Assembly (NCBI GenBank): GCA_037917685.1
Contig: JAVCBU010000022.1
Span: forward strand, 1-45,118
Direction of reading: 5' to 3'
Source of the DNA: Thermoproteota archaeon
Lineage (GTDB): Archaea > Korarchaeota > Korarchaeia > Korarchaeales > JAOZGB01
DNA length: 45,118 bases
The stretch's first letter is position 1; every line of letters starts with the position of its first letter. Positions 1 through 18,885 of the stretch are shown one piece after another. A program made the translations under genes and the position numbers. The notes under the pieces were generated by a model. That model was not told the origin of the DNA. It searched no databases and saw only the letters and a list, made by a program, of their open reading frames with translations.

Positions 1-1377
1 CTCCACGACTACTGGCTGCTCCCTGGAAAGGGAATAAACGTACTCCACGCAGCCGTTCAAGGAGCCTCTAGTAAATACCCTTATCCCCAAGCCCTCCGTC
101 CCGTAGTCCGGCTTAACCACAACCTTCTGGTGCCTGGAGAGGAAGCTGGATATTACCCGCTTTATGCCGCTTAGGGGGGAGCCAAGGCCCACGTACACGT
201 ATTCGGGCATGAGGATCCCTTCTCCCCCGAGGCTATTGTATAGCTCGACGAACCTGTGCGTCAGGTATTTGCTGTCACAGCGCCTGGAGGCGCTGTACGA
301 GTTCAGAACCTCGCACCCCTTAGCCTCCAGCCTTTCGGACAGCGCCTCATGCATCCTTCTCTCGTCTTCCACCCTGAAATTCAGCAGGAGCACCTTCCCG
401 GGATTCGAGGGATATACGGGCGCCTCTACGATGAACCCCCCCTCCCAGAGAATAGCCCTGTGTATCCTAGAATCCCTCCCAAGCCAGCCGATGTACACCC
501 CCTCCACAATCCTTCCGGCGTACTGAAGCTTGAGAAACTCCGCGTCTTTAAACATTTGCCACAGCGCGTTCTTGAAATAGCCGCTGAAGCCCCCAAACAC
601 TACTGTGAGCCTGTCACCCTCGAGGGGGGGCCTGGGGGTCGTCGCCAGCTTGAGGAAGGGCTCCGACAAAACTCCCTGGTGGAGCCTCTCCGCTATGAGC
701 CACCCAAGCCTCTCCCTGTATGTGAATGAAAAGAGGGTCCTGAGAAGCTCGATGCCTGGAACGATCCTCGATGCCGCATGAAAAAGAGAAAAAGCAGCCA
801 TATCCAGGTCCTCGAGGACTCTGCGCAGGGTCTCGGCGAAGCTCCTCCCCTTCAGGAAGCCTCTTTCCAGGATGTAATAGCCCTCCATCAGGAGGTTAAG
901 GTTTTCCTCGTCGATGGCCTCCCCTATCATCGACTCCACGCAGCGCTTAACCTCCCTAAGGCGGAAAATCGCTCGGGCCGGGCAGGCCTCAATTCCGAGC
1001 CACCCCACGTCCGATGACTCGAGGGAAGGTAAGTTTTTGAGAGCTAGATACCTCGCCACCCAGGAGCACCTCCCCGAGAATGCGGAGGCATTTTCCCTTA
1101 CCAGGGCTAATGCCTCGGAGCCCGCCCTGCCCTCGAACAGCCTCCTAGTGGGGCTACTCAGGCCTATCAGCCTGTCCACGTAGTCCACGACCGTATTCAC
1201 ATCCCTCCGAGCTTCCATCATCTCGTAAACAGCCCTCACAGGTCCCCTCCCCTCCCTTCTCGGAAAGCCGTCGATGAAGTTGGCGCGGTAGTATTCCATC
1301 AGATGGACCATGCCCCTCAGATCGTCCTCGGCTACCTCCCTGAGTATCGATGCCAGCGTTCGTCTCGTGGGAATCAT
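1..1377 (-). CDS. ATP-grasp (RimK-like) ligase with a long N-terminal extension; 3' end lies outside the window (at least 459 aa)
   Basis: Not in the ORF track because it has no stop in the window. I translated it by hand from ATG 1377, which overlaps the upstream stop as ATGA. It is open to position 1: MIPTRRTLASILREVAEDDL...VLNSYSASRRCDSKYLTHRFV...MPEYVYV...VVKPDYGTEGLGIRVF...QPVVVE. This matches the ATP-grasp pattern N..(D/N)K...P...VVKP..G..G.G...VVE. Confidence 0.8.
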   Translation of the reverse strand, partial: MIPTRRTLASILREVAEDDLRGMVHLMEYYRANFIDGFPRREGRGPVRAVYEMMEARRDVNTVVDYVDRLIGLSSPTRRLFEGRAGSEALALVRENASAFSGRCSWVARYLALKNLPSLESSDVGWLGIEACPARAIFRLREVKRCVESMIGEAIDEENLNLLMEGYYILERGFLKGRSFAETLRRVLEDLDMAAFSLFHAASRIVPGIELLRTLFSFTYRERLGWLIAERLHQGVLSEPFLKLATTPRPPLEGDRLTVVFGGFSGYFKNALWQMFKDAEFLKLQYAGRIVEGVYIGWLGRDSRIHRAILWEGGFIVEAPVYPSNPGKVLLLNFRVEDERRMHEALSERLEAKGCEVLNSYSASRRCDSKYLTHRFVELYNSLGGEGILMPEYVYVGLGSPLSGIKRVISSFLSRHQKVVVKPDYGTEGLGIRVFTRGSLNGCVEYVYSLSREQPVVVE

Positions 1378-4300
1378 CTGGCTCCCTTACCCGATTCAAG
1401 CAGTCTCTTGTATCTCAGCCCCACTAGGGCCAGGTTCCTAAGTATCGGATCCACAGACTCCCCAGCCCTCCCCCTCCTTTCCAGCTCCCTCTCATATGGG
1501 TAGAACAAGCCCATCCCTATGTTCTCCTCTATGGGCACTACAATCCAGTCCACCAACTTCCCATCCTCGTAGATCGGCTTCAGCATCAGATCCGACAGGT
1601 TCGTCATCGGGAATGAGTAGGGAGTCCCTGTGGCGTCCCTGCCCACCCTGATGCCAAGCCTCTCGGCCAGGATGGGGGCGTAGAGCTCCATCATCTTCAT
1701 CGTGGCCTTCGAGATCCTCTCCATCTCGTCTACCAGGTGCCTGTACTCTTCCCTAAACATTTCCCTCTCGAGGACGAAGAGCTGGCCTCCCTGGCCGAAG
1801 TTGGCGATGCTCTTCACGTGTATGAGCATGATGCGCCCGGTTATCTCCGGCTCCCCCCCGGGCGCCTGGGTGACGTAGTTCCGGAAGTTCCAGTAGAGCT
1901 TAGTGTCGTCTCGGACGCTGATCCCCAGCTTCTCGAACCTCTTTATGACCTCCCCGAGAGCCTTGTCCGTCAGTATCTCCCTAGGCCTGGACTCTATGAA
2001 CTCCTGCACCACCGCGTCGTCCCGGGGCAATATGTCCTCCACTATGAACCTTACGGCATCATCGAAGTTGTGCACCTCGACCGAGCCGTCGATCCCCCTC
2101 GCCCTTTCCAGGTTTTTGGTGCCGTCCGGCCTCCTGAGCAGCGCGACTATCGTCCCCCTGCCTCCCGACTCCGTGCTGGTCTTTATTATCACCTTAGGGT
2201 GCCTCAGGGAGAAATCGTATAATATCTCCTCCACGATCCTTCTACGTTCGCCCTCGGCTTTGTCCCTGAGATCTTCCCGGTATATGTTTACCTGGTCGAC
2301 GAGGGGGACTCTCTCCCTCTCTTCCACCAGCGAGTTGTAGTACTCTATCATCTCGGGCAGCACGGTCTTCATGTATGTGACCCTGTCGATTATCCTCGAC
2401 TGGCTAACGGGCACCCCCATGTCCTCTAGGACCTGCCCCTTGAACCATGGGTGGGTAAAGTGGGGAAACACTACGTGCGCCACTATGGGCCTCTTGAACC
2501 TTACGAACACGAACCTGCCCTCGGGCCCCACGCTCCTGTACCTTTCGCGGAGGACGGGGTCGAGTATATAGCTGGCTATCTTGTTCTTCCCGCCAGCCTT
2601 CTCGTACTCCTCCCTAGTCAGGTACATAAACCCGTAATCGACTAGCGCCACCTCCCTGCCGCTCGCCGGGTCTCTTCCCTTCCTGAGGAAGTTCGTCATG
2701 ACGATGTTCTTGTCCGGACCCCTACCGGAGTGGTGGTAGGGGGCTCTCCTCAGGAAGACCATCGCCGTAGTGTTGCCCAGGTTGTACATTAAGACTACGT
2801 TCACCCTCTCCGAGGCCCTTATCGCCTCCGGGTCCACGCCGTCGAGGACCTCGGGCAGGTAGAAGCCGTCATGGTACAGGGTGGCTAGGTCCCTCAGGCG
2901 GGCGTAGCTGAAGACAAACCTTGACGCCTCGGCGTATCCGTCCCTAGCGGCTATGTCGTCCCCGTCCACGCCCCAGGTCATCAGCCTCTCAACGTCCTCC
3001 CTATCCCACAGCTTCAGCTCAGTCCTCTCCTCCATCAGCCCCCTCAGGTACCTGTAGAGCCACTCGTGCCTGCGGGCTACGAGCTCGAACATCTCCCTCC
3101 TTGTAAACAGGTCCCTGAACTCCCTATCCTTGGAGAAGGCGGCCCGGGTATACAGGTACGGAGCATAGTCGAAAATGTGGTTGTTTAGAGTCCTGTCGAA
3201 GAACCTTGCGATAGCCGTCCACATCTCCCTCCAGCTCGAGGCATCGGAGGTGAGCTCTACCGCGAGGGCGGAATCCAGCAGCTCGGCAACGAGGGCTATG
3301 CGCTCTATCCTCTCCTTCTGCCCCTGAACCCTGAATGCCAGCCGAGAGAGGTGGTCCACGAGCCTCCTATGCTCGTCTATAGTCAAGCCGCCGACCTTGA
3401 GAACCCTCTCAGCGACTTCACGATATATCTTAAGAGACTCCTCCGCTCCAGCGATCTCCCTGGTGATCGCCCTGATCGCCGAGGCGAGAAGTACCAGAAA
3501 CTCCGAGTATGACTGGTCCGAGAAGCCGGATACATTTTCCTCCATCAGCCTCCTAGCCTCCCCATAGATGGAGTCTAGATCCTTATCTAAGCTCCTCCCA
3601 GCCAGTGAGCTTATGATCCTAGCCCTCCTTTGCCTCCTGCGGATCATCCTCAGCTGCATAACCTCCCACTCCTCCCTCGTCTCTCCCTTGAGTGACCCGC
3701 CCAGAACTCTCTCCATCCTGGCGATCCTGCCTTCCCTGAGGAGGAAGGTGGCAACTATCTCATCCACCTTCTCCTTGGGAAGGAGACCCCTCATGGGCGG
3801 CGCATGCCTTAAATCGGGCGGTGCGCGCCCGATCCGCTCCTCGAACTTCTCCCTCAGGCCGGCTACGTAGTCCCTAAACTCCTCGTACGTAGGAATTTTT
3901 CCAGCATTGCCGGCGATCACGTAGCGCCCCCCTATCAGGAGGAACGTCCCAAAGTCCAGGTCGGCAACGTTAAGCCCCTCGGCCATCCTCGAAAGGACCT
4001 CGAGCAACAGTCCATACCTCTTCCCGTAGTCGCTGTAGGTTCTCGGGTCGTCGCCCAGCTCCACGCCCGAGTACAGCCTGTAGTATCTATCTAGCTTCCC
4101 GTTTCTCAGCTCCGCCGATATCCGGTTGAGGAGCTCCTGGGCCTCCTCGTACCTTCCATCCATTATGCTCCTTAGGAGGGCTTCAGCCAGCTCCCGCTCC
4201 CTCTCGACCTCCCTCCTCCACTCATCTATGACAGCATCGGAAATTCCTATGCTGACGTAGGTGCCTCTGAACGCCAGCCACATCTTCGCCATGTCGCGGT

Positions 4301-7300
4301 CCCACACAGGCCCCCGTGCGCCGGCAGTACCGTCTACGATGGCTAAGGCGCTGTCCGGATTCCCATCCCTCATTAGGTAGTACAGCCTAGCCTGGTCGTA
4401 AGCCAGCTGGACTATGCTAGGATGGGGGACCCCGAGACTGAGCACATCTAGCCCTCTTACTCCCGCCACGGGATCCTCGTAGAAGCCCTTATAGTACGTT
4501 ATCAGCCAAGTTATCCTACCCCTAATCTTGTTTTCGATGACCCTCTCGACGTCCTCCGCCCCTCTTAGCCCAGGCCACTGTCCGAAGTTCAGCCCATACT
4601 CTTCCAAGGACCTATCTATCTCCCCGTCGGTGAGCCCCAGCTCGCGCAGATCCTCCCTTATCAGCTCTATCACGGCCCTAGGCCTGTCCTTAACCTTAAT
4701 CAGCCCCCCTCCCTCCTTCACGCCCACGATCCATTCCAGGAAGTTGTTTCCGAAGCTCTCTATGTTGAGTAGTATGTCATCCTCCCCGAACCCCTCTATG
4801 TTGTCCAGCAGCGCCAGCTTAACCTCGCTGGCGAGCTTTCTGAGGGTTAGCTCCCCGTCGAACAGCCAGGAGTCCCTATCTATCAGGGGGTCTATGACGC
4901 GTACCTCCCTGGGAACGCCGTACCTGCCTACCCCACGTGAGATCAGATCCTGTAGCCACCCCCACCTCAGCCTCTTCAGCCTTCTGCCGGAGTGCGTCAG
5001 GCCGAGGAACACGTCGAACTCGGTCGTGAGCCTGCTGTCCTGGACACCCGGCTTGTAGGATGCCTGGATCCCCACAGAGCACTCCTCCAGCCTCTTATCT
5101 GTTCTCCCATGCTTCCGTGCTAGATCCACAGCATGCCCTATTAGGGCAGCCGCGTGGTAGGCCATGAATATGTTGACGGCCCTGGAAGGTAGGTACCTTC
5201 TCTCGTAGAGCTCCCTAGAAGCGGTCCTAAGATACTCAGCCCACTCGTCCCGGGGCTGGCCCAACTTCTCGAGAACCTGTAGCGCTTGGGGGAGGCTGCC
5301 CAGGTAGATAGATTTCGCCGACGCCCCCTCCAACACGGGCCTGAGGAGGCTGTAGGATTCCTCCAGCCACTCGAGTGGATCCTCGTGCTCCACCCTGCTC
5401 TCTAGTATCCTGTTCGCTAAGTCCCTGACGAGGCCGTGAAGGTGGGATGGGATTCCGATCTTCTCTAGAACCTCAGAATCCCTGAGGGACAGAACATAGC
5501 TTACGAAGAGGCCGTCCTTAGGGACGCAGAAGCCCCCATAGCCCCTGCCGGGCCACAGGATGAGGTGGGTAGGCCTGAAGTTGATGTTGGCTATCATGGA
5601 GTAGGCGTTGGCGTCCATCGCCTCGGAGCTTAGGGCCACCAAGTTGGCGAAGGCGTAGTTGTCGTCCCTCGATGCGTTCTCCAGGGTCTTCTGGCCCTCG
5701 GCGTGGGGGGGATTGATATACGCGTGCACCCCCTCCTCCGAGACGTTTATCTTCTCGAACAGCTCCCTGGCTGCCGCGCCCGCCTCCTCGTCGAAGGGGC
5801 CCAGCTGCTGGCCAAGGGCTATCACGGAGTCTATCTCGCGAGGCCCTAGGTCCACCCTACTGGGGGCGTACACCAGGTTGTACCTCTTTCCTGGCTCCGT
5901 GGCCGAGAACCAGTAGTCTTTAACCTTCTCCTGCAGCCCGTGCCTAGCTATAACCTCCTTCCTCGCCGTGGATCGGGAAAGGTAGATCCTCCTGTAAATG
6001 TACCTGTCTATTTCCCCGGCGAGCGACTCCTCCCTGGCCGAAGTCCTAGATAGGGAGAAGTCCTTCTCGAGCTTGTAGCTCTCAAGAACTCTCTCGCGTG
6101 CCTCTCCGGGGGGAACTCCCTGGGCCATCAGGCGGCTGGCCTCTCCCTCCAATCCATGCTCCTCGATCAGACACAGCTTGGCCACCTCCCGGGAGAAGGC
6201 GGGATCTTTGGAGATCATGCTCATCAGCGCCCTCTCCCTGCTGAGCCCCCTACCCATCTCCACCCTCACTGCCTCTTCTAGCCTCTGCTCCTCCACTATT
6301 TTCTCAGCACAGCTCACTATCCGCTCCCTGTAGGACAGGGCCAACTCCTCGACCTCGCCCTCCAGGCCGAAGGCCTTTACCACGTTATAGTTGGCCATCT
6401 CCTCCTCCAGCCAGAACCTTACGAGGCTGGTCATGTTGTAGCTCTGGGTGGTTACAACTATGAACGTCGGCCTCTTCCGTCCTTCTTTCTCGGCCAGAGC
6501 GATGTTCTCGGCCCAGTAGGGCGCCATAGACCTTATAGCGGACTCCATGTTCTCGTAGTCAATTTCGTATCTCCCGTCGCCGGTCTCGTGGATGAAGAGG
6601 GGCAGGGCCTCAACCCAGTAGTCCACGTACTTTAGAGCCTCGAGGCTGGGAGTGGCGTAGACCTGGGGGCTCCCCTCCAGGATGTATTTTTCTAGCCCGA
6701 AGGAGGGGCCCGCAAAGGCCTTCATTACCTCGTTGACGTAGGCCACCTTCGATGCCCCAATGGGAGATAGGCGCTGGCCGAAGAATACGAAGGCCCCCCT
6801 CTTAGACCCCGACCCCCTCGCCTCTTTCCTCACCTTCAGCAATATCTCGTACGCTCCTAAAATCTTCTCGTGGAGCCCCCTCAGCACGCCTAACCTCCTC
6901 TCCCCATCCTCCGGCGCCTCCCTCCATAACTCTTCCTCGCTCCCCCTCAAATAGTCGCCTAGGGCCTTGAGGACGCTCCTCTCGAGCCGGATGAGTTGCG
7001 CATCCGGGATGTACCTATTGAGAAGGCGGGCCTTGAATATCAGGGCCCGGTAGTAGGCCCTGCCGCCGAGATCCTCCAGGAAATCAACGAGATCCTCCAC
7101 GCTCCTCTTCAGGGAATCCGTGACTTCGCAACATCTCGAGGAGGCGAGCACGTAACCCATCACCATGGAGGCCCTGCCGAGGCGCATGTACACTAGGTCC
7201 ATACCGGCCCTCCTAGCACTCTCTGCCAGGTACCTCACGTTTTCGGCATCTATATCCTCCCTGTATGTTTCTCTCAATGCCCTGTAGAGCTCCAGTCTGC

Positions 7301-7961
7301 ACTCCGACCCGTACTTGGCATCGCCGTACTCCTCCAGTATCCTCCTGGTCCTCGCCACGTCGTAGGGATACTCCCTCCCGGAGCAGGACAATATCCAAGA
7401 GACCCATCTTTCCCTCTCATACCCCTCCGACTTGCTCCCCCTCTCCAGGAAGGTTAGAAGATTATTGCCCCAGTCAACTTCCTTCCTCGAGAGAATGCTC
7501 CTCAACTCTCTCCTTCGAGCCTCGCCAATCTTCGAATATACATGTAGGATCTTCGAGCATATCTCCCTTAAAGAGAGGCCGAGCCCGTGGAGAACCAGGC
7601 TAGCCAGGACGAGAGCGTATAGGAGGCCCATCTCCTTCCCATCCTCTTTTAGGAGGGTCACGTCGATGAAGTATTCATGGCCTATCTTCTCCGCGATGCA
7701 TCTGTTGTTCTCTAGCAGAATAGCAGAGGCTCTGCCGCTATAGTCTATGGAGAATGCTCTCGCTAACCGGTTATACTCACGTATCGCCCCCTCCAGCCGT
7801 TCTCCACATCTCTTAGAGCTCGAAGGAGAGTATTCATACCCAGCTATGACGCCCTTGGTAAAGAACAGTTCAAGCCTGCCGACCTCCTTACCCCTGTCCC
7901 TTTTCAGCCTCCCATTCTCTCCGAAATATAGGGGGAATATGCACGTGCCTTCGAGTGGCAT
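1374..7961 (-). CDS. 2195-aa fusion: NDP-sugar (UDP-glucose/GDP-mannose) dehydrogenase-like core plus C-terminal ATP-grasp ligase
   Basis: Dehydrogenase motifs occur in order: YAPSRV (cf. PER), AEGQKTLENASRD..AFAN, WPGRGYGGFCVPKD, YKPGVQDSR, VRVIDP, AIVDG. ATP-grasp motifs occur near the C-terminus: VIIKTSTESGGRG, VVQEFIE, NFRNYV, IANFGQGG, DLM, IEENIG. Confidence 0.8.
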   Translation of the reverse strand: MPLEGTCIFPLYFGENGRLKRDRGKEVGRLELFFTKGVIAGYEYSPSSSKRCGERLEGAIREYNRLARAFSIDYSGRASAILLENNRCIAEKIGHEYFIDVTLLKEDGKEMGLLYALVLASLVLHGLGLSLREICSKILHVYSKIGEARRRELRSILSRKEVDWGNNLLTFLERGSKSEGYERERWVSWILSCSGREYPYDVARTRRILEEYGDAKYGSECRLELYRALRETYREDIDAENVRYLAESARRAGMDLVYMRLGRASMVMGYVLASSRCCEVTDSLKRSVEDLVDFLEDLGGRAYYRALIFKARLLNRYIPDAQLIRLERSVLKALGDYLRGSEEELWREAPEDGERRLGVLRGLHEKILGAYEILLKVRKEARGSGSKRGAFVFFGQRLSPIGASKVAYVNEVMKAFAGPSFGLEKYILEGSPQVYATPSLEALKYVDYWVEALPLFIHETGDGRYEIDYENMESAIRSMAPYWAENIALAEKEGRKRPTFIVVTTQSYNMTSLVRFWLEEEMANYNVVKAFGLEGEVEELALSYRERIVSCAEKIVEEQRLEEAVRVEMGRGLSRERALMSMISKDPAFSREVAKLCLIEEHGLEGEASRLMAQGVPPGEARERVLESYKLEKDFSLSRTSAREESLAGEIDRYIYRRIYLSRSTARKEVIARHGLQEKVKDYWFSATEPGKRYNLVYAPSRVDLGPREIDSVIALGQQLGPFDEEAGAAARELFEKINVSEEGVHAYINPPHAEGQKTLENASRDDNYAFANLVALSSEAMDANAYSMIANINFRPTHLILWPGRGYGGFCVPKDGLFVSYVLSLRDSEVLEKIGIPSHLHGLVRDLANRILESRVEHEDPLEWLEESYSLLRPVLEGASAKSIYLGSLPQALQVLEKLGQPRDEWAEYLRTASRELYERRYLPSRAVNIFMAYHAAALIGHAVDLARKHGRTDKRLEECSVGIQASYKPGVQDSRLTTEFDVFLGLTHSGRRLKRLRWGWLQDLISRGVGRYGVPREVRVIDPLIDRDSWLFDGELTLRKLASEVKLALLDNIEGFGEDDILLNIESFGNNFLEWIVGVKEGGGLIKVKDRPRAVIELIREDLRELGLTDGEIDRSLEEYGLNFGQWPGLRGAEDVERVIENKIRGRITWLITYYKGFYEDPVAGVRGLDVLSLGVPHPSIVQLAYDQARLYYLMRDGNPDSALAIVDGTAGARGPVWDRDMAKMWLAFRGTYVSIGISDAVIDEWRREVERERELAEALLRSIMDGRYEEAQELLNRISAELRNGKLDRYYRLYSGVELGDDPRTYSDYGKRYGLLLEVLSRMAEGLNVADLDFGTFLLIGGRYVIAGNAGKIPTYEEFRDYVAGLREKFEERIGRAPPDLRHAPPMRGLLPKEKVDEIVATFLLREGRIARMERVLGGSLKGETREEWEVMQLRMIRRRQRRARIISSLAGRSLDKDLDSIYGEARRLMEENVSGFSDQSYSEFLVLLASAIRAITREIAGAEESLKIYREVAERVLKVGGLTIDEHRRLVDHLSRLAFRVQGQKERIERIALVAELLDSALAVELTSDASSWREMWTAIARFFDRTLNNHIFDYAPYLYTRAAFSKDREFRDLFTRREMFELVARRHEWLYRYLRGLMEERTELKLWDREDVERLMTWGVDGDDIAARDGYAEASRFVFSYARLRDLATLYHDGFYLPEVLDGVDPEAIRASERVNVVLMYNLGNTTAMVFLRRAPYHHSGRGPDKNIVMTNFLRKGRDPASGREVALVDYGFMYLTREEYEKAGGKNKIASYILDPVLRERYRSVGPEGRFVFVRFKRPIVAHVVFPHFTHPWFKGQVLEDMGVPVSQSRIIDRVTYMKTVLPEMIEYYNSLVEERERVPLVDQVNIYREDLRDKAEGERRRIVEEILYDFSLRHPKVIIKTSTESGGRGTIVALLRRPDGTKNLERARGIDGSVEVHNFDDAVRFIVEDILPRDDAVVQEFIESRPREILTDKALGEVIKRFEKLGISVRDDTKLYWNFRNYVTQAPGGEPEITGRIMLIHVKSIANFGQGGQLFVLEREMFREEYRHLVDEMERISKATMKMMELYAPILAERLGIRVGRDATGTPYSFPMTNLSDLMLKPIYEDGKLVDWIVVPIEENIGMGLFYPYERELERRGRAGESVDPILRNLALVGLRYKRLLESGKGAR

Positions 7962-8208: not shown

Positions 8209-8451
8209 GTGGGAGAGAGGGTGAAAATCGATGAGCGATGGAGGATAGTAATCCCTTCGAGGTTCAGGGAGGGGCTGAGGCCGAGGGACGAGTTGGTGGT
8301 TGAAAGGAGGGGGGCGGAGATAGTCCTAAAAAAGGCCTCCCGAGAGGACCTCCTGAAAGAGTTTAATGAGATAAAACTGTTCGTAAATGAGAACCTGAGA
8401 ACCTTGAGCGCTGAGAAGGGCAAGCATATGTACGGGGGGCGCAAGGAATGA
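8209..8451 (+). CDS. AbrB/MazE/SpoVT-family antitoxin (VapB-type)
   Basis: 80 aa with KIDERWRIVIPSRFREGLRPRDEL (AbrB pattern); ATGA overlap with the downstream PIN gene. Confidence 0.85.
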   Translation: MGERVKIDERWRIVIPSRFREGLRPRDELVVERRGAEIVLKKASREDLLKEFNEIKLFVNENLRTLSAEKGKHMYGGRKE

Positions 8452-8876
8452 GAATTCTGGACGCAGACGTACTTTCCTACGGCCTTCTGGAGAATCATGT
8501 GGCAACTCCATACACGAGGCCTTTAATCGAGAGGGGGATCAAGGGCGAGCTGGAGATATATGTGACGGCAACCACCCTCCTAGAGGCCTACAATACTCTT
8601 TTCTGGCACTATAAGGTCAGGCCTCGGGTAGATGTGGCCCGCAAGATACGGTTAGTGGCGGAGGGGCTGGAGCTCATCCCTCCCTCGAACATGGGTTTCA
8701 GGATGAGCGTCGCCGATGATGTTCCTCTGGGAGATGCCATACTCGTCGCCACGGCCCTAGATAATAGGATCCCCGTAATCGTCTCTAATGACAGGCACAT
8801 CGAAAAATTAGCTGAGAAATACGGGCTGCTGTATGAGAACCCCCTGCCGGAGGAGGTTAGATCCCAGATAAAATGA
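8448..8876 (+). CDS. vapC: PIN-domain (VapC-type) toxin
   Basis: ILDADV at the N-terminus, TLLE, DAILVATA and SNDRH supply the PIN acidic residues; paired with an AbrB antitoxin. Confidence 0.85.
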   Translation: MRILDADVLSYGLLENHVATPYTRPLIERGIKGELEIYVTATTLLEAYNTLFWHYKVRPRVDVARKIRLVAEGLELIPPSNMGFRMSVADDVPLGDAILVATALDNRIPVIVSNDRHIEKLAEKYGLLYENPLPEEVRSQIK

Positions 8877-9292: not shown

Positions 9293-11167
9293 TTAGAGAA
9301 CAGTGCCCAGATCCGTCTGCCAGCAGGAGTATCGGGGCCTCTTTTCCCTGTTGGGGACATACACGTCGAAGCTGAGCTTTGGCCTCTCTACCTTCTTAGC
9401 GTATTTTAGCACTATCCTGTTCTCGCCGCGCTTTAGATGTGCACCAAACCTGTACATCCTTGGATTCCAGATAGTTTTTCCAGAGCCGCGTCCCACGAGC
9501 CTCCCGTTAACCCACACCTTGACATCGCCAGCGGCTCCGACCACCACGGAAACGTTCCTATCGTCCGGCGAATACATTCGATGTAGAAGGTAAACGCAGC
9601 ACTCCCCCCTGAATCCAAGGATGCTCTCCAGAGGTATCGTGCTCTCTGGGGACTCCAGCACCACACAATCACTAAATAGCTCAGGCTCCCTCCCATCCTC
9701 TATCAGCCTCTCGTCCACGTAGGCCACGTCCACGTCCGCGGAATCCTCGATCCACGACTTAGCCTCATAGTACGGGCCTATGACCCCCCAAATCCTAGAG
9801 CCACACATACCGAACCGCCTGCTCCAACTTCTGCCCGACGAATCTGTAAACTCCACTCTAAAAATGTTCGTGTTCCACAGGATGCCCTTTGAGGGTGCCT
9901 CTAACGTAAGCTCGAAGACCTGGGTAGAATGGGGCATCACGCTTATCCTCGACGGCCCCGACGTTTTCCAGCCCTTCGGCACATCTAGACTCAGGGTTCC
10001 CTCAATAGCAACAGCAAGGCCATTTTCCAAACAGATGGTTATTTTCCTAGTCTCTCCACGCCCCATAGCGGGGGGCCCGTTGTAGCCCACCGAGAGCTCG
10101 ACGCCCGGCTCGGGCCTTAATGAGGCTATTTTCTCAGCCATGGTGCCAATCTCTTCGGGCACGTCGAGTACTTCCACCCTGTAGTTGAGGGTCTTCGAGA
10201 GGGCCACGCCCACGGCGCAGGTCTCGTGGGCAAGGTCGGATATCCTGTTGCTTCTTCTTGGTAGAGGGAAGCCCATCTCAAACTCGTCTCCTATCGGCTC
10301 CCTCCACTTGCAGGGTATCGCGTCTGCGCCTAGGAGGGCCCCGAGCAGGGCGCCTGCGGTAGCGCACGTGCAGTCCGTGTCATATCCGCAGTTCAGTGCT
10401 ATCAGCATGGTTTTTCCGAAGTCGAGCTCCCCCCACAAGAGGGCGATCAGTATGAAGCCGATGTTCTGGAAGACGGAAGTGAAATCGGGGCTACCAAACT
10501 TCCTCAGTACTACGCTCCGGGCGTCAACCCAGCTGAGCCCTCTCAGGTAGCAGCTCCTCACGGTGCTGACAACACTACCCAGCCTGGATGCGGGCGGCAC
10601 GAACCTCAGGCCCGCATCGACGAGCTCTTCCATGCCATCAGCGTTAAATGCCGACGACTCCATTGCCGCTAGGAACTGCTCAGCCCAGATGGAGTTCTTC
10701 CAATGGTCTAGGCATGCATCCATGCTGGCGTAGCGCGCCGCTAGCGACGGATTGTTTGGGCAGATGAAGCCCCATATCTCGGACCTTATGGGGGAGCCCA
10801 TGGACTCCCTAAAGTACTCGTTGTCGAACCAACCGGAGGTGGGAGGATCTATGCCACGTGAGAAGTTCTTTAGGAACCTCCCATACTCGTTGAAGTCGTA
10901 CCAGCAGTGCTCCCACCACTCCTCCGCGAGATCCATGCTGGATATATTTAAGCCCCGCTCCTGGAGGGTGTGGAGCCACAGCACCTGCAGGTCGAGGTCG
11001 TCATTCGGGGGCCACTCTTCCGGGAATGCGTCTTCCTCGGTGAAGCTGTGCATCCTCTTCTGCCCCTCCACCCTGGCTCCCACAGCCCCTCCTATGCACT
11101 TTCCAAGCCAGCCCCCGTAAACTCTCCTGTAATACTCGCCGTAACTTAGCCCCAGTTTCTCGCTCAT
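9293..11167 (-). CDS. ADP-ribosylglycohydrolase-family protein with C-terminal NEW3/Ig-like and PA14-like beta domains
   Basis: ARH motifs GGWLGKCIGGAVG, PPNDDLD, IRSEIWG and GYDTDCTCATAGALLG. The tail has LDVPKGWK (NEW3-like) and DVKVWVNG...LKRGENRIVLK (PA14/galactose-binding-like). Confidence 0.85.
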   Translation of the reverse strand: MSEKLGLSYGEYYRRVYGGWLGKCIGGAVGARVEGQKRMHSFTEEDAFPEEWPPNDDLDLQVLWLHTLQERGLNISSMDLAEEWWEHCWYDFNEYGRFLKNFSRGIDPPTSGWFDNEYFRESMGSPIRSEIWGFICPNNPSLAARYASMDACLDHWKNSIWAEQFLAAMESSAFNADGMEELVDAGLRFVPPASRLGSVVSTVRSCYLRGLSWVDARSVVLRKFGSPDFTSVFQNIGFILIALLWGELDFGKTMLIALNCGYDTDCTCATAGALLGALLGADAIPCKWREPIGDEFEMGFPLPRRSNRISDLAHETCAVGVALSKTLNYRVEVLDVPEEIGTMAEKIASLRPEPGVELSVGYNGPPAMGRGETRKITICLENGLAVAIEGTLSLDVPKGWKTSGPSRISVMPHSTQVFELTLEAPSKGILWNTNIFRVEFTDSSGRSWSRRFGMCGSRIWGVIGPYYEAKSWIEDSADVDVAYVDERLIEDGREPELFSDCVVLESPESTIPLESILGFRGECCVYLLHRMYSPDDRNVSVVVGAAGDVKVWVNGRLVGRGSGKTIWNPRMYRFGAHLKRGENRIVLKYAKKVERPKLSFDVYVPNREKRPRYSCWQTDLGTVL

Positions 11168-11629: not shown

Positions 11630-12070
11630 ATGATATTTAGGAGGGTAGAGGAATATGGTCTAGGTGTCTATTTGAAGCTGCCAGCGGAATGGGTCGAGAA
11701 AGCCGATTTCCTTATCAGAGATGCGGAGAGACATTTAGAAGAAGAAATATACTGGATGGTGTGCTTCGAATCGCAGCAAGCCGCCGAGCTCTACCTAAAA
11801 GGATTAAACCTGGCTCTAACAGGGCTTCACCCATACACCCATGACCTTGTGGAGCTTCTCGAGACTCTTAAAGAACTGGACCTAAATCCTCCGGAAGACC
11901 TGTACGTATATGCTGACGCGTTAACTCCCCACTACACCATGTCGAGGTACCCCGGGAGGAAGCCCGTAATATATAATAAGGGCCTGGCCGAGAGGTGCAT
12001 TAAGTATGCGAGGAGAATCATCGAGTGGGTTAAGGAGGAAGCTCTTAAGATCGAATGCCAGAAAGGTTAG
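11630..12070 (+). CDS. HEPN-domain protein
   Basis: CFESQQAAELYLKG, PYTHDL, YTMSRYP. The true start may be TTG 11672, after AGGTG. Confidence 0.88.
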   Translation: MIFRRVEEYGLGVYLKLPAEWVEKADFLIRDAERHLEEEIYWMVCFESQQAAELYLKGLNLALTGLHPYTHDLVELLETLKELDLNPPEDLYVYADALTPHYTMSRYPGRKPVIYNKGLAERCIKYARRIIEWVKEEALKIECQKG

Positions 12071-12407
12071 AGAAGGTAAAAAATTTCTACGCGAGTACGT
12101 CGAGGAGATATCAAGGAGATATCCTCGATCCACAGTGATACTGTTTGGTTCTAGGTCCGCAGAGAGCCACCTGCCCTATAGCGACTATGATGTCATGGTG
12201 ATCCTCGAAGAAGTGAGCGACAAACTCGCAACCATAGAAGAACTCAGAAGGATGAAGCCCAGGGGGCTACCGTTGGACCTCCTGGTGTTCCAGATGGACG
12301 AATTGTCGGATCCTTTGGTATCCAACATGCTGGAGAAGTGCAAGGTTCTGTACGATGGACTTGAAGCATCGAGACGCCTACAGGCTATTCGCCTAGCAGG
12401 TGAATAG
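12006..12407 (+). CDS. Minimal nucleotidyltransferase (MNT), partner of the HEPN gene
   Basis: ILFGSRS...YSDYDVMVI...LDLLV (GS..DxD..D); overlaps the HEPN 3' end. Start uncertain. Confidence 0.88.
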   Translation: MRGESSSGLRRKLLRSNARKVREGKKFLREYVEEISRRYPRSTVILFGSRSAESHLPYSDYDVMVILEEVSDKLATIEELRRMKPRGLPLDLLVFQMDELSDPLVSNMLEKCKVLYDGLEASRRLQAIRLAGE

Positions 12408-12629: not shown

Positions 12630-13028
12630 TTAGATGGAAATGAACATGCTTTTAGCCTGCTGTATGCCGCGTATCCCCCTTATCCTCCCTATCAGGGAGA
12701 GGATTCTCCGAGCCCCACCCTCAGCGATTACTATCTCGAGGCAGTGCCTCCTCCCCAGGTGCCTATGGATGTTCTCTATGATTATATCGTCGAAGGAGTG
12801 CCTGATCTGAGCGACCCTCCTATCGACGTCGCCCCTCCCATACTCGTACGTCATCATTATCGTTGTTGCCACCTCCCCATCCTCTAGCCTAGCGATCTCA
12901 GCCTCGGCTATGAGGCTCCTGATGGCGTCGCGGACTGCCTCAGACCTGCTGTAATATCCCCTAGATTCCACGAACCTGTCGAACCTCTCCAGGAGATCGT
13001 CTGGGATTGTTATGCTTATTACCCCCAC
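12630..13028 (-). CDS. nikR: NikR-family ribbon-helix-helix metal-responsive regulator
   Basis: ISITIPDDLLERFD...YYSRSEAVRDAIR (RHH) plus C-terminal RH...HRHLGRRHCLE, the NikR His/His/His/Cys ligand pattern. Confidence 0.85.
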   Translation of the reverse strand: MGVISITIPDDLLERFDRFVESRGYYSRSEAVRDAIRSLIAEAEIARLEDGEVATTIMMTYEYGRGDVDRRVAQIRHSFDDIIIENIHRHLGRRHCLEIVIAEGGARRILSLIGRIRGIRGIQQAKSMFISI

Positions 13029-13040
13029 ATAACCACCGGC

Positions 13041-13112
13041 ATATTATAATGTAGTGTAAATCATAGTACTATGCTATTAGTTTTTCTCCAGAAAGTAGCA
13101 TTAAATTAATAT
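13041..13112. promoter_or_regulatory. AT-rich divergent promoter region with palindromes (candidate NikR-like operator)
   Basis: Perfect palindrome CATAGTACTATG at 13062-13073 and inverted pair ATGCTA-N19-TAGCAT at 13071-13101. TATA-like TTAATATA lies upstream of the ATPase. Confidence 0.45.
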
Positions 13113-13147
13113 ACACCTAGGGTAGTCCTTGGAGAAGGAGCTGCCAG

Positions 13148-15031
13148 ATGGCCTACAACGACGGGGAAGAGGGAAGGACGTCTTGGCTATACATGTCGCT
13201 GGGGCTGGGCGCCGCCACAGCCGGAGTGCTCCTCTCCAGCCACCTGCTCGGAGGCGTGCCCGGGATCCTGGAGATATCCTACCATGCGATGGTTGTGGGG
13301 GTAGGTGCCTATGTAGGATACCTCGGCCTTAGGGAGCTTATCTCCGAGAAGAGGTTCTCGGTGGAGTTCCTCATGGCGGTGGCGGCCCTCGGCGCCATAT
13401 ACCTAGACCTGCACTTCGAGGGAGCGACAGTGCTGGCACTGTACTCGCTGGCGGAATACCTCGAGGATTACATAGAGGACAGGGCCAGGAGAACCGTGCA
13501 GGAGCTCTCGCAGTACATGCCGGAGGGGGCTAGGGTAGTAGATCGAGGAAGTGAGAGGATGGTGGAGGTAGGGAGCGTCAAGCCCGGCACCACAATCCTA
13601 GTTAGGCCGGGGGAGAGGATACCGCTGGACGGGGTAGTCCTGGACGGATCATCTTACGTTGATCAGTCTCCTGTGACAGGCGAGTCTATGCCCGTGTTCA
13701 AGAAGAGGGGGGATGAGGTCTTCGGGGGGACGCTTAACCTCGACGGCGTTCTCAGGATCAGGGTCGCTAGAGAGGCTAGCGAGAGCCTCGTATCCAAGAT
13801 CGTTGGGCTTGTGGTCGAGTCGAAGAGAAGGAAGGCCCGCATAGAGAGGCTCGTGGACAGGGTTGCCAAGTTCTATGTGCCCGCGGTGATCACCTCGGCC
13901 GTAGCGACGGCCACACTCGTTCCTACGGTCGTGGGAGGATCGTTCAAGATGTGGCTCTATAGGTCGCTGATACTGCTCGTTGCGTCATGCCCCAGCGCCT
14001 TCGTGGTCTCAGTCCCTGCGACGTTCTTCACCGCGATGACCGCCGCCGCCAGGAGGGGGGTCATAATAAAGGGCGGCGTCTACATCGAGAAGATGGCTAG
14101 GGTGAGAACGGTAGTTTTCGACAAGACCGGCACGCTCACGCTCGGAGCCCCCAGGGTAGTCGAAGAATGCCCCTTTACCCAGATAGATGATGAGACCCTG
14201 AGATACGCGGCAGCTCTCGAGAGATACTCGAACCATCCGATAGCGAGGGCCATAGTCAGGAGGGCCGTTGAGGCGGGATTAGATGTTCGGGGCTTGAAGG
14301 TGGAAGATGTAAGGGAGGAGCCGGGTATGGGAGTGGTCGGAGTCGTGGAGGGGGTGAGGGTTTCCGTTGGCAAGCCGGTTTCCCTTGGAGGCGCGGGGTA
14401 CGGCGACGGCCATACAAGGGTGCAGATTACTGTGGGAGAATCTAGGAAAGCTTCTCTGTGCCTGGCCGATCAGGCAAGGTCGGATGCGCGAGGATCCTTG
14501 AGTGAGCTGAGGAGGATGGGGCTGTACACCGTAATGCTGACCGGGGACAAGTGGGAGGTTGCGAAGAGGCTGGCGGAGACCATGGGTATGGACGAAGTAT
14601 ATGCTGAGCTGCTGCCGGAGGATAAGCTGAGGATCGTGTCACGGTTAAGATCTGAGAGGGGCATGGTGGCGATGGTAGGAGACGGGGTGAACGACGCTCC
14701 CGCGCTGGCGGCAGCTGATGTCGGAATAGCCATGGGAGGCAGGGGGGTGGATGTAGCTCTCGAGTCGGCAGACGTTGTTCTTGTGAGAGATCAGCTGAGC
14801 CAGATTCCCTACATATATGGCCTGAGCAGGGCGGCCATGAAAATCGCAAAGCAGAACATCGCCATTTCGCTCGGAACGAAGCTTCTCTTGGGCATGTTGG
14901 GGTTCATGGGGTTCCTTCCCCTATGGTTCGCCGTCGCTGTTGGCGATGATGGGATAACCATGCTCCTCATACTAAACACCCTGCGCATCACGAGACAAGG
15001 GAAAGCTGGAAGCCAGCTAAAGGAGGTATAG
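13148..15031 (+). CDS. Heavy-metal-translocating P1B-type ATPase (ZntA/CadA-like, no N-terminal metal-binding domain)
   Basis: PGERIPLDG, TGES, SCPSA, DKTGTLT, SNHP, MLTGD and GDGVNDAPAL; Lys and DDG in the last two helices. Confidence 0.93.
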   Translation: MAYNDGEEGRTSWLYMSLGLGAATAGVLLSSHLLGGVPGILEISYHAMVVGVGAYVGYLGLRELISEKRFSVEFLMAVAALGAIYLDLHFEGATVLALYSLAEYLEDYIEDRARRTVQELSQYMPEGARVVDRGSERMVEVGSVKPGTTILVRPGERIPLDGVVLDGSSYVDQSPVTGESMPVFKKRGDEVFGGTLNLDGVLRIRVAREASESLVSKIVGLVVESKRRKARIERLVDRVAKFYVPAVITSAVATATLVPTVVGGSFKMWLYRSLILLVASCPSAFVVSVPATFFTAMTAAARRGVIIKGGVYIEKMARVRTVVFDKTGTLTLGAPRVVEECPFTQIDDETLRYAAALERYSNHPIARAIVRRAVEAGLDVRGLKVEDVREEPGMGVVGVVEGVRVSVGKPVSLGGAGYGDGHTRVQITVGESRKASLCLADQARSDARGSLSELRRMGLYTVMLTGDKWEVAKRLAETMGMDEVYAELLPEDKLRIVSRLRSERGMVAMVGDGVNDAPALAAADVGIAMGGRGVDVALESADVVLVRDQLSQIPYIYGLSRAAMKIAKQNIAISLGTKLLLGMLGFMGFLPLWFAVAVGDDGITMLLILNTLRITRQGKAGSQLKEV

Positions 15032-15189
15032 ATACTCTAATCGCTCCGAAAATCCCACATCAGTAACTCTCTTTCTCAGATGAAGATTGAAGAAGCTTAA
15101 GTACCAAGAGTGCGGAACATAATGTAAGGTGAATGCGGAGAAGCCTACCCGAACTCCCTCATCGAATCCCGGCCGCCGGGGGAAGATCC

Positions 15190-16647
15190 ATGAAGTATGA
15201 TGTCGGGGGTGACGGAGACAGGAAAGCTGCTCTGTTCGTCGCGGTGCTTACCTCCTTTCTCACGACCTTCATGGGCTCCGCGGTAAACATAGCACTTCCA
15301 TCTATCGGAAGGGAGTTTCGAATGGACGCCGTTCTCCTCGGCTGGGTTGCCTCCTCCTACCTTTTGGCCGCCGCCGTGTTTCTGGTTCCCTTCGGGAGGA
15401 TAGCCGACATACACGGAAGGAGGAAGGCGTTATTGTGGGGCGTCCTGATCTACACTCTCTCCTCCCTGCTTTCCTCCTCCTCGACATCCCCCATCTCGCT
15501 CATATGTTTTCGAACGTTACAGGGAGTAGGAGGCGCCATGATTTTCGCGACGAGCGTGGCGATACTGACCTCCGTATATCCTCTGGGGGAGAGGGGCAAA
15601 GTCCTGGGTATGAACGCCGCCTCGGTTTATCTGGGGCTGACATCGGGGCCCATTCTCGGAGGATTTCTAGTCCAGCTTTTTGGCTGGAGAAACGTCTTCC
15701 TTACGGGTGTTCCCATGGGCCTGGCGGTAATTGCCCTGATCCTCTCGAGGCTGCGGGGCGAGTGGGCCGAGGCAGAGGGTGAGAGGTTCGACTTAGCAGG
15801 CTCGCTGATCTACGGCCTCTCACTCGTGCTAGCCATGTACGGTTTCACCATGCTGCCAGCGAGATATAGCCTATGGCTAGTCCTGACGGGCGGTCTAGGA
15901 ATTTTGGCATTCATCAAGTGGGAGACCAGGATCGAAGATCCCGTGTTAGAAATAAGACTCTTCAGAGACAACAGGGTCTTTGCGCTCTCCAACCTGTCGG
16001 CGCTGATCAGCTATAGCGCGACATTTGCGACCGGCTTCCTTCTGAGCCTCTACCTGCAATACGTTAGGGGGGTTAGCCCCCAATTAGCCGGGTTGACTTT
16101 AATGTTCCGGCCGGTGGTGCAGGCCTCCTTTTCGCCGCTCGCCGGCAAGCTATCGGACAGGTCCGAGCCTCGGATAATAGCCTCTGCCGGCATGGCGCTG
16201 ATAGCTTTAGGCCTCCTGCTCCTAACCCTTTTAAGCTGGGGAACCTCTCTGGGATTCGTCGGAGGTGTACTGGCCATCCTTGGCCTCGGCTTCGCCCTCT
16301 TCTCCTCCCCAAACACGAATGCGGCCATGAGCTCAGTCGAAAGGAGATTCTACGGGGTAGCATCGGCAACCCTTGGAACCATGCGGCTGGTCGGGCAGAT
16401 ATTCAGCATGGGAATAGCAACAATGGTAATCAACATGTATGTGGGGCAGGTACAGATAACGCCCCAACGGTACCCGGACCTTTTAGCCAGCATAAGGGCG
16501 GCCTTCCTCGCGTTCTTTATTCTAAGCCTATGCGGCATACCTGCTTCCCTGGCGAGGGGCAGTATTAGGCGGGCAGAATTCTCCCAACCCTCCACGGCAT
16601 TCGGGCAAGCTTGCAGGGGGGCGCTGAGTGGAGAAAGTGAGGTTTAA
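15190..16647 (+). CDS. MFS drug:H+ antiporter (DHA2/EmrB-QacA-like, 14 TM)
   Basis: MGSAVNIALPSI, GRIADIHGRR, RTLQGVGGA, GPILGG, FSSPNT. Start placed at ATG 15190 rather than 15133 in the track. Confidence 0.88.
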   Translation: MKYDVGGDGDRKAALFVAVLTSFLTTFMGSAVNIALPSIGREFRMDAVLLGWVASSYLLAAAVFLVPFGRIADIHGRRKALLWGVLIYTLSSLLSSSSTSPISLICFRTLQGVGGAMIFATSVAILTSVYPLGERGKVLGMNAASVYLGLTSGPILGGFLVQLFGWRNVFLTGVPMGLAVIALILSRLRGEWAEAEGERFDLAGSLIYGLSLVLAMYGFTMLPARYSLWLVLTGGLGILAFIKWETRIEDPVLEIRLFRDNRVFALSNLSALISYSATFATGFLLSLYLQYVRGVSPQLAGLTLMFRPVVQASFSPLAGKLSDRSEPRIIASAGMALIALGLLLLTLLSWGTSLGFVGGVLAILGLGFALFSSPNTNAAMSSVERRFYGVASATLGTMRLVGQIFSMGIATMVINMYVGQVQITPQRYPDLLASIRAAFLAFFILSLCGIPASLARGSIRRAEFSQPSTAFGQACRGALSGESEV

Positions 16648-17799: not shown

Positions 17800-18885
17800 A
17801 TGAACCACAGGGAAAGGTTGCTCAGGGTCTTCAAGTTCGAGGAGGTGGACAGGGTCCCCGACTACGAGTTCGGCTACTGGAGGGAGACTATAGACAGGTG
17901 GCACGCGGAGGGCCTGCCGCTACACCTCCACACGAACAGGGACCTGGAGGGCTACTTCGGGCTGGAGGGCTGGGAGTCCATAGAGTTCGTTCCGGTCGTG
18001 ACGGGAATTTGGCCGAGCCCCCCATCGAGGATATTGAGGGAGTATGGAGATAAGGAGGTGGTCAGCGACGGGCTCGGAGGAATATATGTGAGGAAGAAGT
18101 GGACGTCCACCATACCCCATTACATCAGGTACCCGCTGAGGAGCAGGGATAACTGGGAGAGGATAAGGCCGTTCTTCGACCCCGACACCCCCGGGAGGAT
18201 GCCCCTAAACTGGGAGGAGGTCGCCGAAGGTTACAGGGAGAGGGACTACCCCCTGGGGATGCGCATCGGCAGCCTCTACGGATGGCTGCGGAACCTAATG
18301 GGGGTGGAGGGCATCGCCAGGGCCTTCTACAGGGACCCGGATTGGATAGCCGAGATGATGGACGCCCTGGTGGAGCTCTGGATAAGCCTCATCCGGAGGA
18401 CCCTCAGGGACGTCAGGGTGGACTTCGCCACCTGGTGGGAGGACATGTGCTACAGCCGCGGCCCTCTGATCTCGGTGAGGCTATTCGAGGAGTTCATGGT
18501 CCCACGCTACAGGAGGGTGACGAACGTTCTCAAGGAGTATGGGGTGGAAGTTAACATTCTAGACTGCGACGGGAAGATAGACGCCCTCGTGCCCGGATGG
18601 CTGGAGGCCGGGATAAACTGCATGCTCCCGATAGAGGCCAGGTACACGAGCCCAATAGAGCTTAGGAGGAAGTACGGGAGGAGGATACTGCTGATGGGCG
18701 GAGTCAACAAGCTGGCGCTGATAAGGGGAAGAAAGGCCATAGAGAGGGAGATCCAAAGGCTGGCACCTCTAGTTGAAGAAGGAGGCTACATACCGATGGT
18801 CGACCACAGGGTTCCCCCCGATGTCTCCCTCGACAACTACCTTTACTATTTAAAGACTAAGAGAAAAATCATCGGAAAAGAATGA
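17800..18885 (+). CDS. Uroporphyrinogen decarboxylase/MtaA-CmuA superfamily (URO-D fold) protein, function unknown
   Basis: MNHRER...VDRVP, WLRNLMG, WEDM, GPLIS, DCDG, LMGGV, GGYIPMVDH. Confidence 0.85.
   Translation: MNHRERLLRVFKFEEVDRVPDYEFGYWRETIDRWHAEGLPLHLHTNRDLEGYFGLEGWESIEFVPVVTGIWPSPPSRILREYGDKEVVSDGLGGIYVRKKWTSTIPHYIRYPLRSRDNWERIRPFFDPDTPGRMPLNWEEVAEGYRERDYPLGMRIGSLYGWLRNLMGVEGIARAFYRDPDWIAEMMDALVELWISLIRRTLRDVRVDFATWWEDMCYSRGPLISVRLFEEFMVPRYRRVTNVLKEYGVEVNILDCDGKIDALVPGWLEAGINCMLPIEARYTSPIELRRKYGRRILLMGGVNKLALIRGRKAIEREIQRLAPLVEEGGYIPMVDHRVPPDVSLDNYLYYLKTKRKIIGKE

Follow-up and report, generated by a model that had tools for sequence, protein, structure and literature searches.

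At one end of the window, by which we mean the whole 45,118-nucleotide stretch analysed here (the first 45 kb of contig C5, JAVCBU010000022.1, from a Thermoproteota archaeon), the minus strand carries an open reading frame (ORF) for a protein of 2195 aa, referred to below as the giant, followed by the start of a second gene, referred to as the partner. The genome assembly amounts to 1.81 Mb in 22 contigs and is 95 % complete. As the window begins at a contig end, the gene downstream of the giant is cut off. The features of the locus, with the evidence by which each was delimited, are:

1374..7961, minus strand: giant ORF, 2195 aa and stop codon, with an ATG start and without internal stop
6807..7961, minus strand: N domain, residues 1–385 of the giant (family alignment)
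4236..6806, minus strand: nucleotide-sugar-dehydrogenase-like module, residues 386–1242 (profile searches, hhalign, family alignment)
5016..5894, minus strand: core of that module that aligns with canonical UDP-glucose 6-dehydrogenase (UGDH) and WecC enzymes, residues 690–982 (hhalign, PF00984, PDB profile matches)
2814..4235, minus strand: M domain, residues 1243–1716 (AlphaFold2 model, family alignment)
1377..2813, minus strand: predicted ATP-grasp ligase module, residues 1717–2195 (AlphaFold2 model, Foldseek, VIA)
1..1377, minus strand: partner gene, first 459 aa of a predicted second ATP-grasp ligase, truncated by the contig end, its ATG overlapping the stop codon of the giant (ATGA)

A preliminary description of this DNA, made from the letters alone, had read 1374–7961 as a single uninterrupted ORF joining the motifs of a sugar dehydrogenase to those of an ATP-grasp ligase. 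The ORF is as described, and each of the motifs was found once in the giant, no more than a few bases from where it had been placed. Those on the dehydrogenase side are AEGQKTLEN (residues 754–762, nt 5676–5702), PGRGYGGFCVPKD (residues 804–816, nt 5514–5552) and YKPGVQDSR (residues 969–977, nt 5031–5057), and those on the ligase side are KTSTESGGRG (residues 1927–1936, nt 2154–2183), QEFIE (residues 1986–1990, nt 1992–2006), NFGQGG (residues 2054–2059, nt 1785–1802) and PIEEN (residues 2143–2147, nt 1521–1535). Conservation of individual residues was assessed in an alignment of 33 family sequences that share 27–64 % identity. K758, N762, C812, K815, Y969, K970, D975 and R977 on the one side, and K1927, S1932, G1933, G1934 and R1935 on the other, are invariant in all 33, and a further nine residues (D816, Q1986, E1987, N2054, G2056, G2058, G2059, E2145 and N2147) are at least 90 % conserved. 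Hence, the motifs are not chance matches. The start codon of the giant is supported by a homologue, 64 % identical, whose alignment begins at residue 1.

A word-indexed search of 5.8 billion proteins (E≤0.001) returned 36 matches, among them full-length archaeal-type homologues (P0002–P0014; 2175–2255 aa, 50–64 % identity) and about 18 bacterial proteins of 2200–2500 aa that share 26–28 % identity with the giant. The named sources are metagenome-assembled genomes (MAGs) of Thermoproteales, Armatimonadota, Latescibacteria and Omnitrophota, and the database names met were 'hypothetical protein' and, once, 'Rossmann-fold NAD(P)-binding domain-containing protein'. The giant gene is present in four GTDB species genomes, all of them Thermoproteales or Thermoprotei MAGs. 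It was not found in 40 related genomes of the same genus, order, class or phylum, which contained only ordinary open frames, mostly of 430–520 aa, that match residues ~685–830 of the giant. The distribution is therefore patchy. A scan of metagenome contigs yielded 141 encoding stretches, of which 80 were kept, and the complete set comprises 85 loci with 81 distinct giant sequences. An uninterrupted ORF of at least 2150 aa is present in 60 of these 81 (median 2442, range 2175–3744), and the remaining 21 either run off contig ends or are split. In the two cases that look split (L053 and L061) the giant is represented by a pair of neighbouring ORFs, the likely result of a frameshift or of a true split of the gene.

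Conservation spans the whole length of the giant, including the domain junctions and both regions that match no described domain. The window comes from a draft genome of 22 contigs and starts at a contig end, a setting in which a long ORF could be an assembly chimera or a fused pseudogene. However, the same architecture recurs uninterrupted, with conserved junctions, in independent assemblies from archaea and bacteria, so that an assembly chimera is excluded in practice and we regard the probability of this explanation as negligible. Judged by its sequence, the ORF is intact and belongs to a conserved but uncharacterised family of giant putative multi-enzymes found in archaea and several bacterial phyla. 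The architecture was not described in the literature searched (full-text searches). Thus, the fusion proved to be real, and for that literature the earlier statement that no characterised protein with this architecture was known also holds.

The core of the dehydrogenase-like module appears to be closest to enzymes of the WecC/Cap5O type. The sole Pfam match in the module is PF00984 at residues 754–822 (E 3.2e-9, 37.2 bits against a cut-off of 25.4). In a profile search of the PDB, the leading matches were 4r16 (6.5e-18), 3g79 (1.8e-17) and Cap5O (9.4e-11), all of the N-acetylhexosamine type, with chains of UDP-glucose and GDP-mannose dehydrogenases at 1.9e-7 or weaker. A set of 14 canonical paralogues (428–474 aa) was assembled from the genome of the window, which also encodes two ordinary paralogues of 428 aa and 440 aa, and from its relatives. 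Compared with this set, hhalign aligned residues 690–982 of the giant to canonical positions 153–346 across an insertion of ~90 residues (99.1 %, E 1.1e-18, 194 columns), pairing K758 and N762 with the canonical AExxKxxEN motif and GYGGFCVPKD with GVGGxCLxKD, and also matching the YK..D.R motif. The core thereby spans the end of the N-domain of the canonical enzymes, the central domain (K758/N762), C812 in GGFCVPKD and, with YKPGVQDSR, the beginning of the UDP-binding domain. When the UDP-binding C-domain was compared in isolation, across a large insertion, the match fell to 73 % (E 3e-5); Y969, K970, D975 and R977 of the motif in this domain are all present and aligned with the canonical enzymes. 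Relative to the WecC/Cap5O-type and UDP-glucose 6-dehydrogenases (4r16, 3g79, 3ojl), the giant therefore shares the central domain and the start of the UDP-binding domain, and retains the catalytic Lys, Asn, Cys (in GGxCxPKD) and Asp together with YKxxxxDxR. It differs in that the module is embedded in a protein of 2195 aa and, because of several insertions, is about twice the canonical size (~857 aa against ~430–480 aa).

The C-terminal module was modelled with AlphaFold2 from an alignment of 52 sequences (mean predicted local distance difference test, pLDDT, 92.6; predicted template modelling score, pTM, 0.91). Foldseek matched the model to at least 386 PDB chains at E≤1e-3, and all 36 among the matches listed are ATP-grasp enzymes, with D-Ala-D-Ala ligases at the top (3.4e-9). 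VIA found 72 chains at Z≥8, and the 50 listed (Z 12.1–22.2) are likewise all ATP-grasp enzymes. The closest were ArgX (3vpb, Z 22.2, rmsd 2.6 Å over 267 residues), LysX (5k2m, Z 22.1), RimK (4iwx, Z 21.6), DcsG (Z 20.9), GshB (1gsa, Z 20.9) and the D-Ala-D-Ala ligase Ddl (6dgi, Z 20.0), the first five of which are all carboxylate-amine ligases. These alignments extend over model residues 28–498. By its predicted fold, the segment from residue ~1717 to ~2187 is a complete ATP-grasp ligase, consisting of pre-ATP-grasp, central and C-terminal domains and some 200 residues of insertions, and the dehydrogenase and ATP-grasp assignments of the preliminary description have thus each found independent support, the former in PF00984, a TIGR03026 match below its cut-off, the 4r16 and 3g79 profiles and the 99 % hhalign result, and the latter in the fold model and its structural neighbours. 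We take K1927 to be the ATP-binding Lys, with the Gly-rich loop, the hinge QE and a Mg-binding ExN in the remaining motifs.

Sequence comparison is less informative for this module. Although the giant shares the full three-domain fold and the conserved motifs with LysX/ArgX, RimK, GshB and D-Ala-D-Ala ligase, it is only 9–17 % identical to them and is longer (~480 aa against ~280–310 aa), and a PDB sequence-profile search with the module gave no matches. Pfam matches among the 52 C-terminal modules are weak. The commonest is the YheC/YheD-like family PF14398 (13 of 52 at E≤0.1, best E 9e-5), followed by GSH-S_ATP and the sugar-transfer-associated ATP-grasp family (5 of 52 each); the module encoded in the window reaches 17.3 bits on PF14398, for which the cut-off is 26.8. 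PF14398 is also the best Pfam match of the partner. We know of no biochemically defined reaction for the YheC/D family, and in the literature found it is treated only as a spore-coat protein family.

Orthologues of the partner are present at all four genome loci. A full-length example (L008:12422-14260) matches PF14398 ATPgrasp_YheCD above its cut-off (E 1.6e-7, 31.3 bits against 26.8) and gives weak NCBIfam matches to RimK, MptN and GshB models (rimK_fam, 26.7 bits against 143.4). The partner aligns with the C-terminal module of the giant (hhalign 96.3 %, E 1.9e-9, 343 columns) and appears from this to be its distant paralogue, whereas no relation was detected between the partner and the N, M or dehydrogenase-like parts (hhalign 0.1–0.3 %). 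A complex prediction for the ATP-grasp module and partner of the L008 pair scored 0.00, which speaks neither for nor against binding. The missing C-terminal part of the partner was not found on other contigs of the genome of the window.

Linkage was counted in the 65 distinct loci with at least 500 bp of sequence downstream of the giant. The partner is downstream of the giant or fused to it in 53 of these, and in 45 of the 53 it is at position +1. A sugar-activating gene is found in 32 of the 65. These genes encode galactokinase-like GHMP kinases that have the galactose-binding signature and score below galactokinase cut-offs, fucokinase-like and HddA-like GHMP kinases, and a GalU that scores above its cut-off (353 bits against 326.8). 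In bacterial loci, the genes upstream include those for a sigma-54 activator, a histidine kinase and HDOD proteins, and some bacterial loci also have short-chain dehydrogenase/reductase (SDR), DUF4432, S66 LD-carboxypeptidase or NlpC/P60-LysM neighbours. DUF4432 is presumably mutarotase-like, and both it and the peptidases fit a sugar-peptide product. No glycosyltransferase or export genes recur beside members of the giant family.

The same set of genes recurs within single proteins. Among 23 family proteins of at least 2700 aa, the partner is fused directly after the ATP-grasp module in 21, and in 15 of the 21 a GHMP kinase is fused as well. Without exception, the parts follow one another as N, dehydrogenase-like, M, ATP-grasp, partner, kinase. 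Proteins in which giant, partner and kinase are all joined measure 3,000–7,900 aa. The named large forms, of up to 5707 aa, are hypothetical proteins of Omnitrophota, and the largest overall is P0064 (7944 aa). On this evidence the giant probably acts as a unit with its translationally coupled partner, joined in the majority of lineages by an anomeric sugar kinase of galactokinase-like type.

Some members and loci of the family have further features. P0064, P0073 (6162 aa), P0054 (5085 aa), P0066 (5597 aa) and P0063 (4426 aa) contain large extra regions, either 1100–3400 residues before the N domain or ~1500 residues after the partner or kinase, to which the family hidden Markov models (HMMs) assign nothing; Pfam searches of the extra regions of P0063 and P0070 gave only a 24-residue CsrA-like match in P0063. 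Upstream of a fused giant of 3744 aa, a single reading frame that is open at the contig end (L025:2-4627, plus strand) joins the C-terminal end of a WecB-like UDP-GlcNAc 2-epimerase to a galactokinase-like kinase and a GlmU-like nucleotidyltransferase region.

The N domain is the least conserved part of the giant, with five invariant residues (L157, Y200, R260, R263 and A264), and has no Pfam match. Residues 111–131 (nt ~7569–7631) form its sole strongly hydrophobic stretch of 19–21 residues (Kyte-Doolittle mean 2.07), which could be a buried helix or a membrane anchor. The M domain (residues 1240–1700) was modelled as entirely helical (pLDDT 87.2), and its invariant residues are G1344, G1345, H1595, P1601, R1606 and R1690. 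Foldseek found no matches to this model at E≤1e-3, and the best VIA match (Z 7.9) lies within the background range for helical models. The lack of a fold match for what is a predicted structure does not prove that the fold is new. Separate PDB profile searches with the two domains gave only noise, which was coiled-coil for the N domain and coiled-coil or G-beta across both searches (E≥0.02), and ESM Atlas look-ups with the M domain and with residues 1–2046 gave no usable match. When an M-domain profile was run against 1.84 billion representatives, 109 proteins were retrieved, 93 at E≤1e-10 and 64 at E≤1e-30. All the long matches are giants with the domain in the corresponding position, and the short ones look like fragments.

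Elsewhere in the window, the gene at 9293–11167 (minus strand), upstream of the giant and in the same orientation, encodes a 624-aa protein with an ADP-ribosylglycohydrolase domain at residues 18–286 (E 5e-40) and ~340 C-terminal residues without a Pfam match; it does not recur at related loci. A PIN-domain gene (8448–8876, plus strand) and a pair of overlapping HEPN and nucleotidyltransferase ORFs (11630–12407, plus strand) lie between the giant and a group of metal-related genes and resemble toxin-antitoxin modules. A reading of the locus as a defence system was rejected, as these genes do not recur at the other 84 loci (neighbourhood comparison, without a PADLOC scan). At 12630–16647, a NikR-like regulator is divergent from a P-type ATPase and an MFS transporter, an arrangement suggestive of a unit for metal homeostasis. 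From ~18000 to ~32000, the G+C content falls from ~0.57 to 0.40–0.45. This stretch includes three URO-D-like paralogues (17800–18885, 26492–27658 and 29839–30915), an OPT transporter, a DUF6785 protein and a thioredoxin/DsbD-like protein, and may be a foreign island or a methyltransferase cluster. The ORF at 21813–26351 (minus strand, 1512 aa) combines a PA domain, an M28 peptidase, a MacB-like periplasmic core and an FtsX-like permease, an unusual peptidase-permease fusion.

With moderate confidence, we interpret the giant, its partner and the kinase as a cytoplasmic pathway in which a UDP-sugar is oxidised and then amidated in two steps by ATP-grasp ligases. A GHMP kinase would phosphorylate a hexose or N-acetylhexosamine at C1 and a nucleotidyltransferase of the GalU/GlmU type would convert the product to a UDP-sugar. 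At its invariant Lys/Asn/Cys/Asp site, the dehydrogenase-like module would then oxidise C6 to a carboxylate, after which the C-terminal ATP-grasp module would activate the carboxylate as an acyl phosphate and amidate it with an amino acid or amine, and the partner would add a second residue. The domain identities, the conservation of the catalytic residues and of the fusion, and the linkage and fusion of the genes are directly supported; from these we infer the substrates, the order of the steps, the use of NAD and the action of the ligases on a uronate. A sugar-nucleotide substrate agrees with the gene context, in which a galactokinase-like kinase and GalU are found.

A precedent for the ligation step is the C-terminal domain of Cj1438 from Campylobacter jejuni, an ATP-grasp enzyme reported to amidate the C6 carboxylate of glucuronate, a uronic acid from a UDP-sugar dehydrogenase pathway (PMC11800379). 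Cj1438C belongs to the TupA-like ATP-grasp subfamily, whereas the C-terminal module of the giant has no TupA-like Pfam match, and in its capsule locus it is joined to a GT2 glycosyltransferase, not to a dehydrogenase-like module as the ATP-grasp module of the giant is. The preliminary description had proposed a bifunctional enzyme that oxidises a sugar and then ligates the product. Both enzyme domains and the sugar-nucleotide context are consistent with that idea. However, the oxidation is not secured, and the second ATP-grasp ligase in the next gene, together with the forms that include a fused kinase, indicate a multi-enzyme system rather than a two-step fusion.

A number of observations weigh against oxidation followed by amidation of a uronate, and most concern the dehydrogenase-like module. 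Neither GxGxxG nor any other conserved Gly-rich loop was found at residues 264–397 of the 33-sequence alignment, and the Rossmann part on its own could not be significantly aligned with the canonical enzymes (hhalign 3 %). Scores also fall far below the family cut-offs: in NCBIfam searches with the whole protein, TIGR03026 was matched at E 1.1e-16 but with 60.6 bits against a cut-off of 189.8, and two WecC-type equivalogs gave 37–40 bits against cut-offs of 459–750. Two weak alignments (hhalign, and HMMER to 3g79) place a SQRxSPxG...NE...P..GK segment (FFGQRLSPIG, residues 393–402) on the canonical beta2 strand and the helix that follows, with the invariant Q396-R397 at the site of the canonical ribose-binding Asp. 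Since this segment falls on beta2, beta1 and the GxGxxG loop must have been replaced or have diverged beyond recognition. With no conserved Gly-rich loop and a Rossmann part that cannot be significantly aligned, oxidation that depends on NAD(P) is unproven; a divergent nucleotide site may still be accommodated in the predicted N-terminal part of the module. On the ligase side, the TupA-like family is absent from the 12 Pfam families matched by the 52 C-terminal modules and from the listed fold matches, although absence from such lists is no proof against membership, and the closest structural relatives (LysX/ArgX and RimK) act on protein or peptide carboxylates, not sugars. As to the context, no partner is nearby in 12 of the 65 loci, where the downstream genes are unrelated, a nucleotidyltransferase is adjacent in only 7 loci, and a galactokinase-like gene was not found in the genome of the window (searched with a single query in a genome of 95 % completeness, whose contig breaks off within the operon). 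Finally, the N and M domains leave ~860 residues without an assigned role.

The first group of these observations would be accommodated if the dehydrogenase-like module were free of NAD and served as a binding or acyl-transfer (thioester) station, with the ligases using a pre-existing carboxylate, for example that of a uronate taken up or salvaged, or of some other acid. The absence of the NAD fingerprint, the presence of Q396-R397 at the beta2 Asp site, the doubled size of the module and its large insertions are all in keeping with this, and a kinase and GalU would equally suit salvage of a pre-formed sugar acid. Yet the complete 6-dehydrogenase catalytic set (nearly so for the Asp of PKD) has been kept across archaea and bacteria at 27 % identity. 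As this is hard to explain otherwise, the original chemistry is favoured; moreover, a missing sequence fingerprint is no proof against a nucleotide site, and we consider a station without NAD possible, though on balance unlikely. A more improbable alternative is that the ligases add amino acids to the C-terminus or a side chain of a protein or peptide, in the manner of RimK, LysX or YheC/D, with the sugar module responsible for a separate modification or one of the helical domains acting as carrier. The ArgX/LysX and RimK matches (Z 21.6–22.2), the weak Pfam matches to YheC/D-like, GSH-S and sugar-transfer-associated ATP-grasps, and the weak similarity of the partner to RimK, MptN and GshB models point this way, but no LysW-type small carrier or conserved peptide gene recurs in the 85 loci, and sugar kinases, rather than ribosomal or peptide genes, constantly accompany the giant. 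An ATP-grasp combined with a Cys-dependent dehydrogenase-like site and LysX-like structural neighbours also recalls the logic of LysX-LysZ-LysY, and reduction of acyl phosphates or thioesters has precedents in ArgC/LysY and the carboxylate reductases. In such a scheme, the ATP-grasp acyl phosphate would pass to a Cys thioester and then be reduced with NAD(P)H, so that an acid such as a uronate would become an aldehyde or alcohol. We think this very unlikely, as two ligases and an anomeric kinase would be needless for a reduction and the NAD fingerprint is missing here too.

That the NAD fingerprint should be missing when the catalytic Cys/Lys site is intact is an enzymological puzzle by itself. 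One speculative answer, to which we give little credence, is that the Cys is a thioester station without classical NAD binding from which the acyl group is handed straight to the amine. If this were true, the acyl group would be the carboxylate of a sugar acid activated by the ATP-grasp module, or the trapped thioester of a half-finished oxidation, and these proteins of 2,200–7,900 aa would be unrecognised, carrier-free assembly lines driven by ATP-grasp ligases, with the two new helical domains as scaffold or substrate channel. Their product in Thermoproteales-type archaea, Omnitrophota, Armatimonadota and further uncultivated phyla would be a metabolite or polymer of the sugar-acid/amino-acid kind.

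Returning to oxidation and two-step amidation, the components appear, from sequence comparison, to be of known kinds, and what is new is the fixed way in which they are combined, the remodelling of the dehydrogenase module and the pair of domains without assignment. Found in archaea and bacteria alike, the family is conserved over its whole length, yet its members carry only generic database names. The version in the window, from a thermophilic archaeon, has 2195 aa and no extra extensions, making it a practical candidate for expression and structure work. Since known chemistries (a sugar 1-kinase, a 6-dehydrogenase core and two ATP-grasps) occur in a fixed order, the product is probably an undiscovered compound of a sugar acid and amino acids. 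As to its role in these uncultivated lineages, one can guess at a compatible solute, a precursor of the cell envelope or a polymer for storage.

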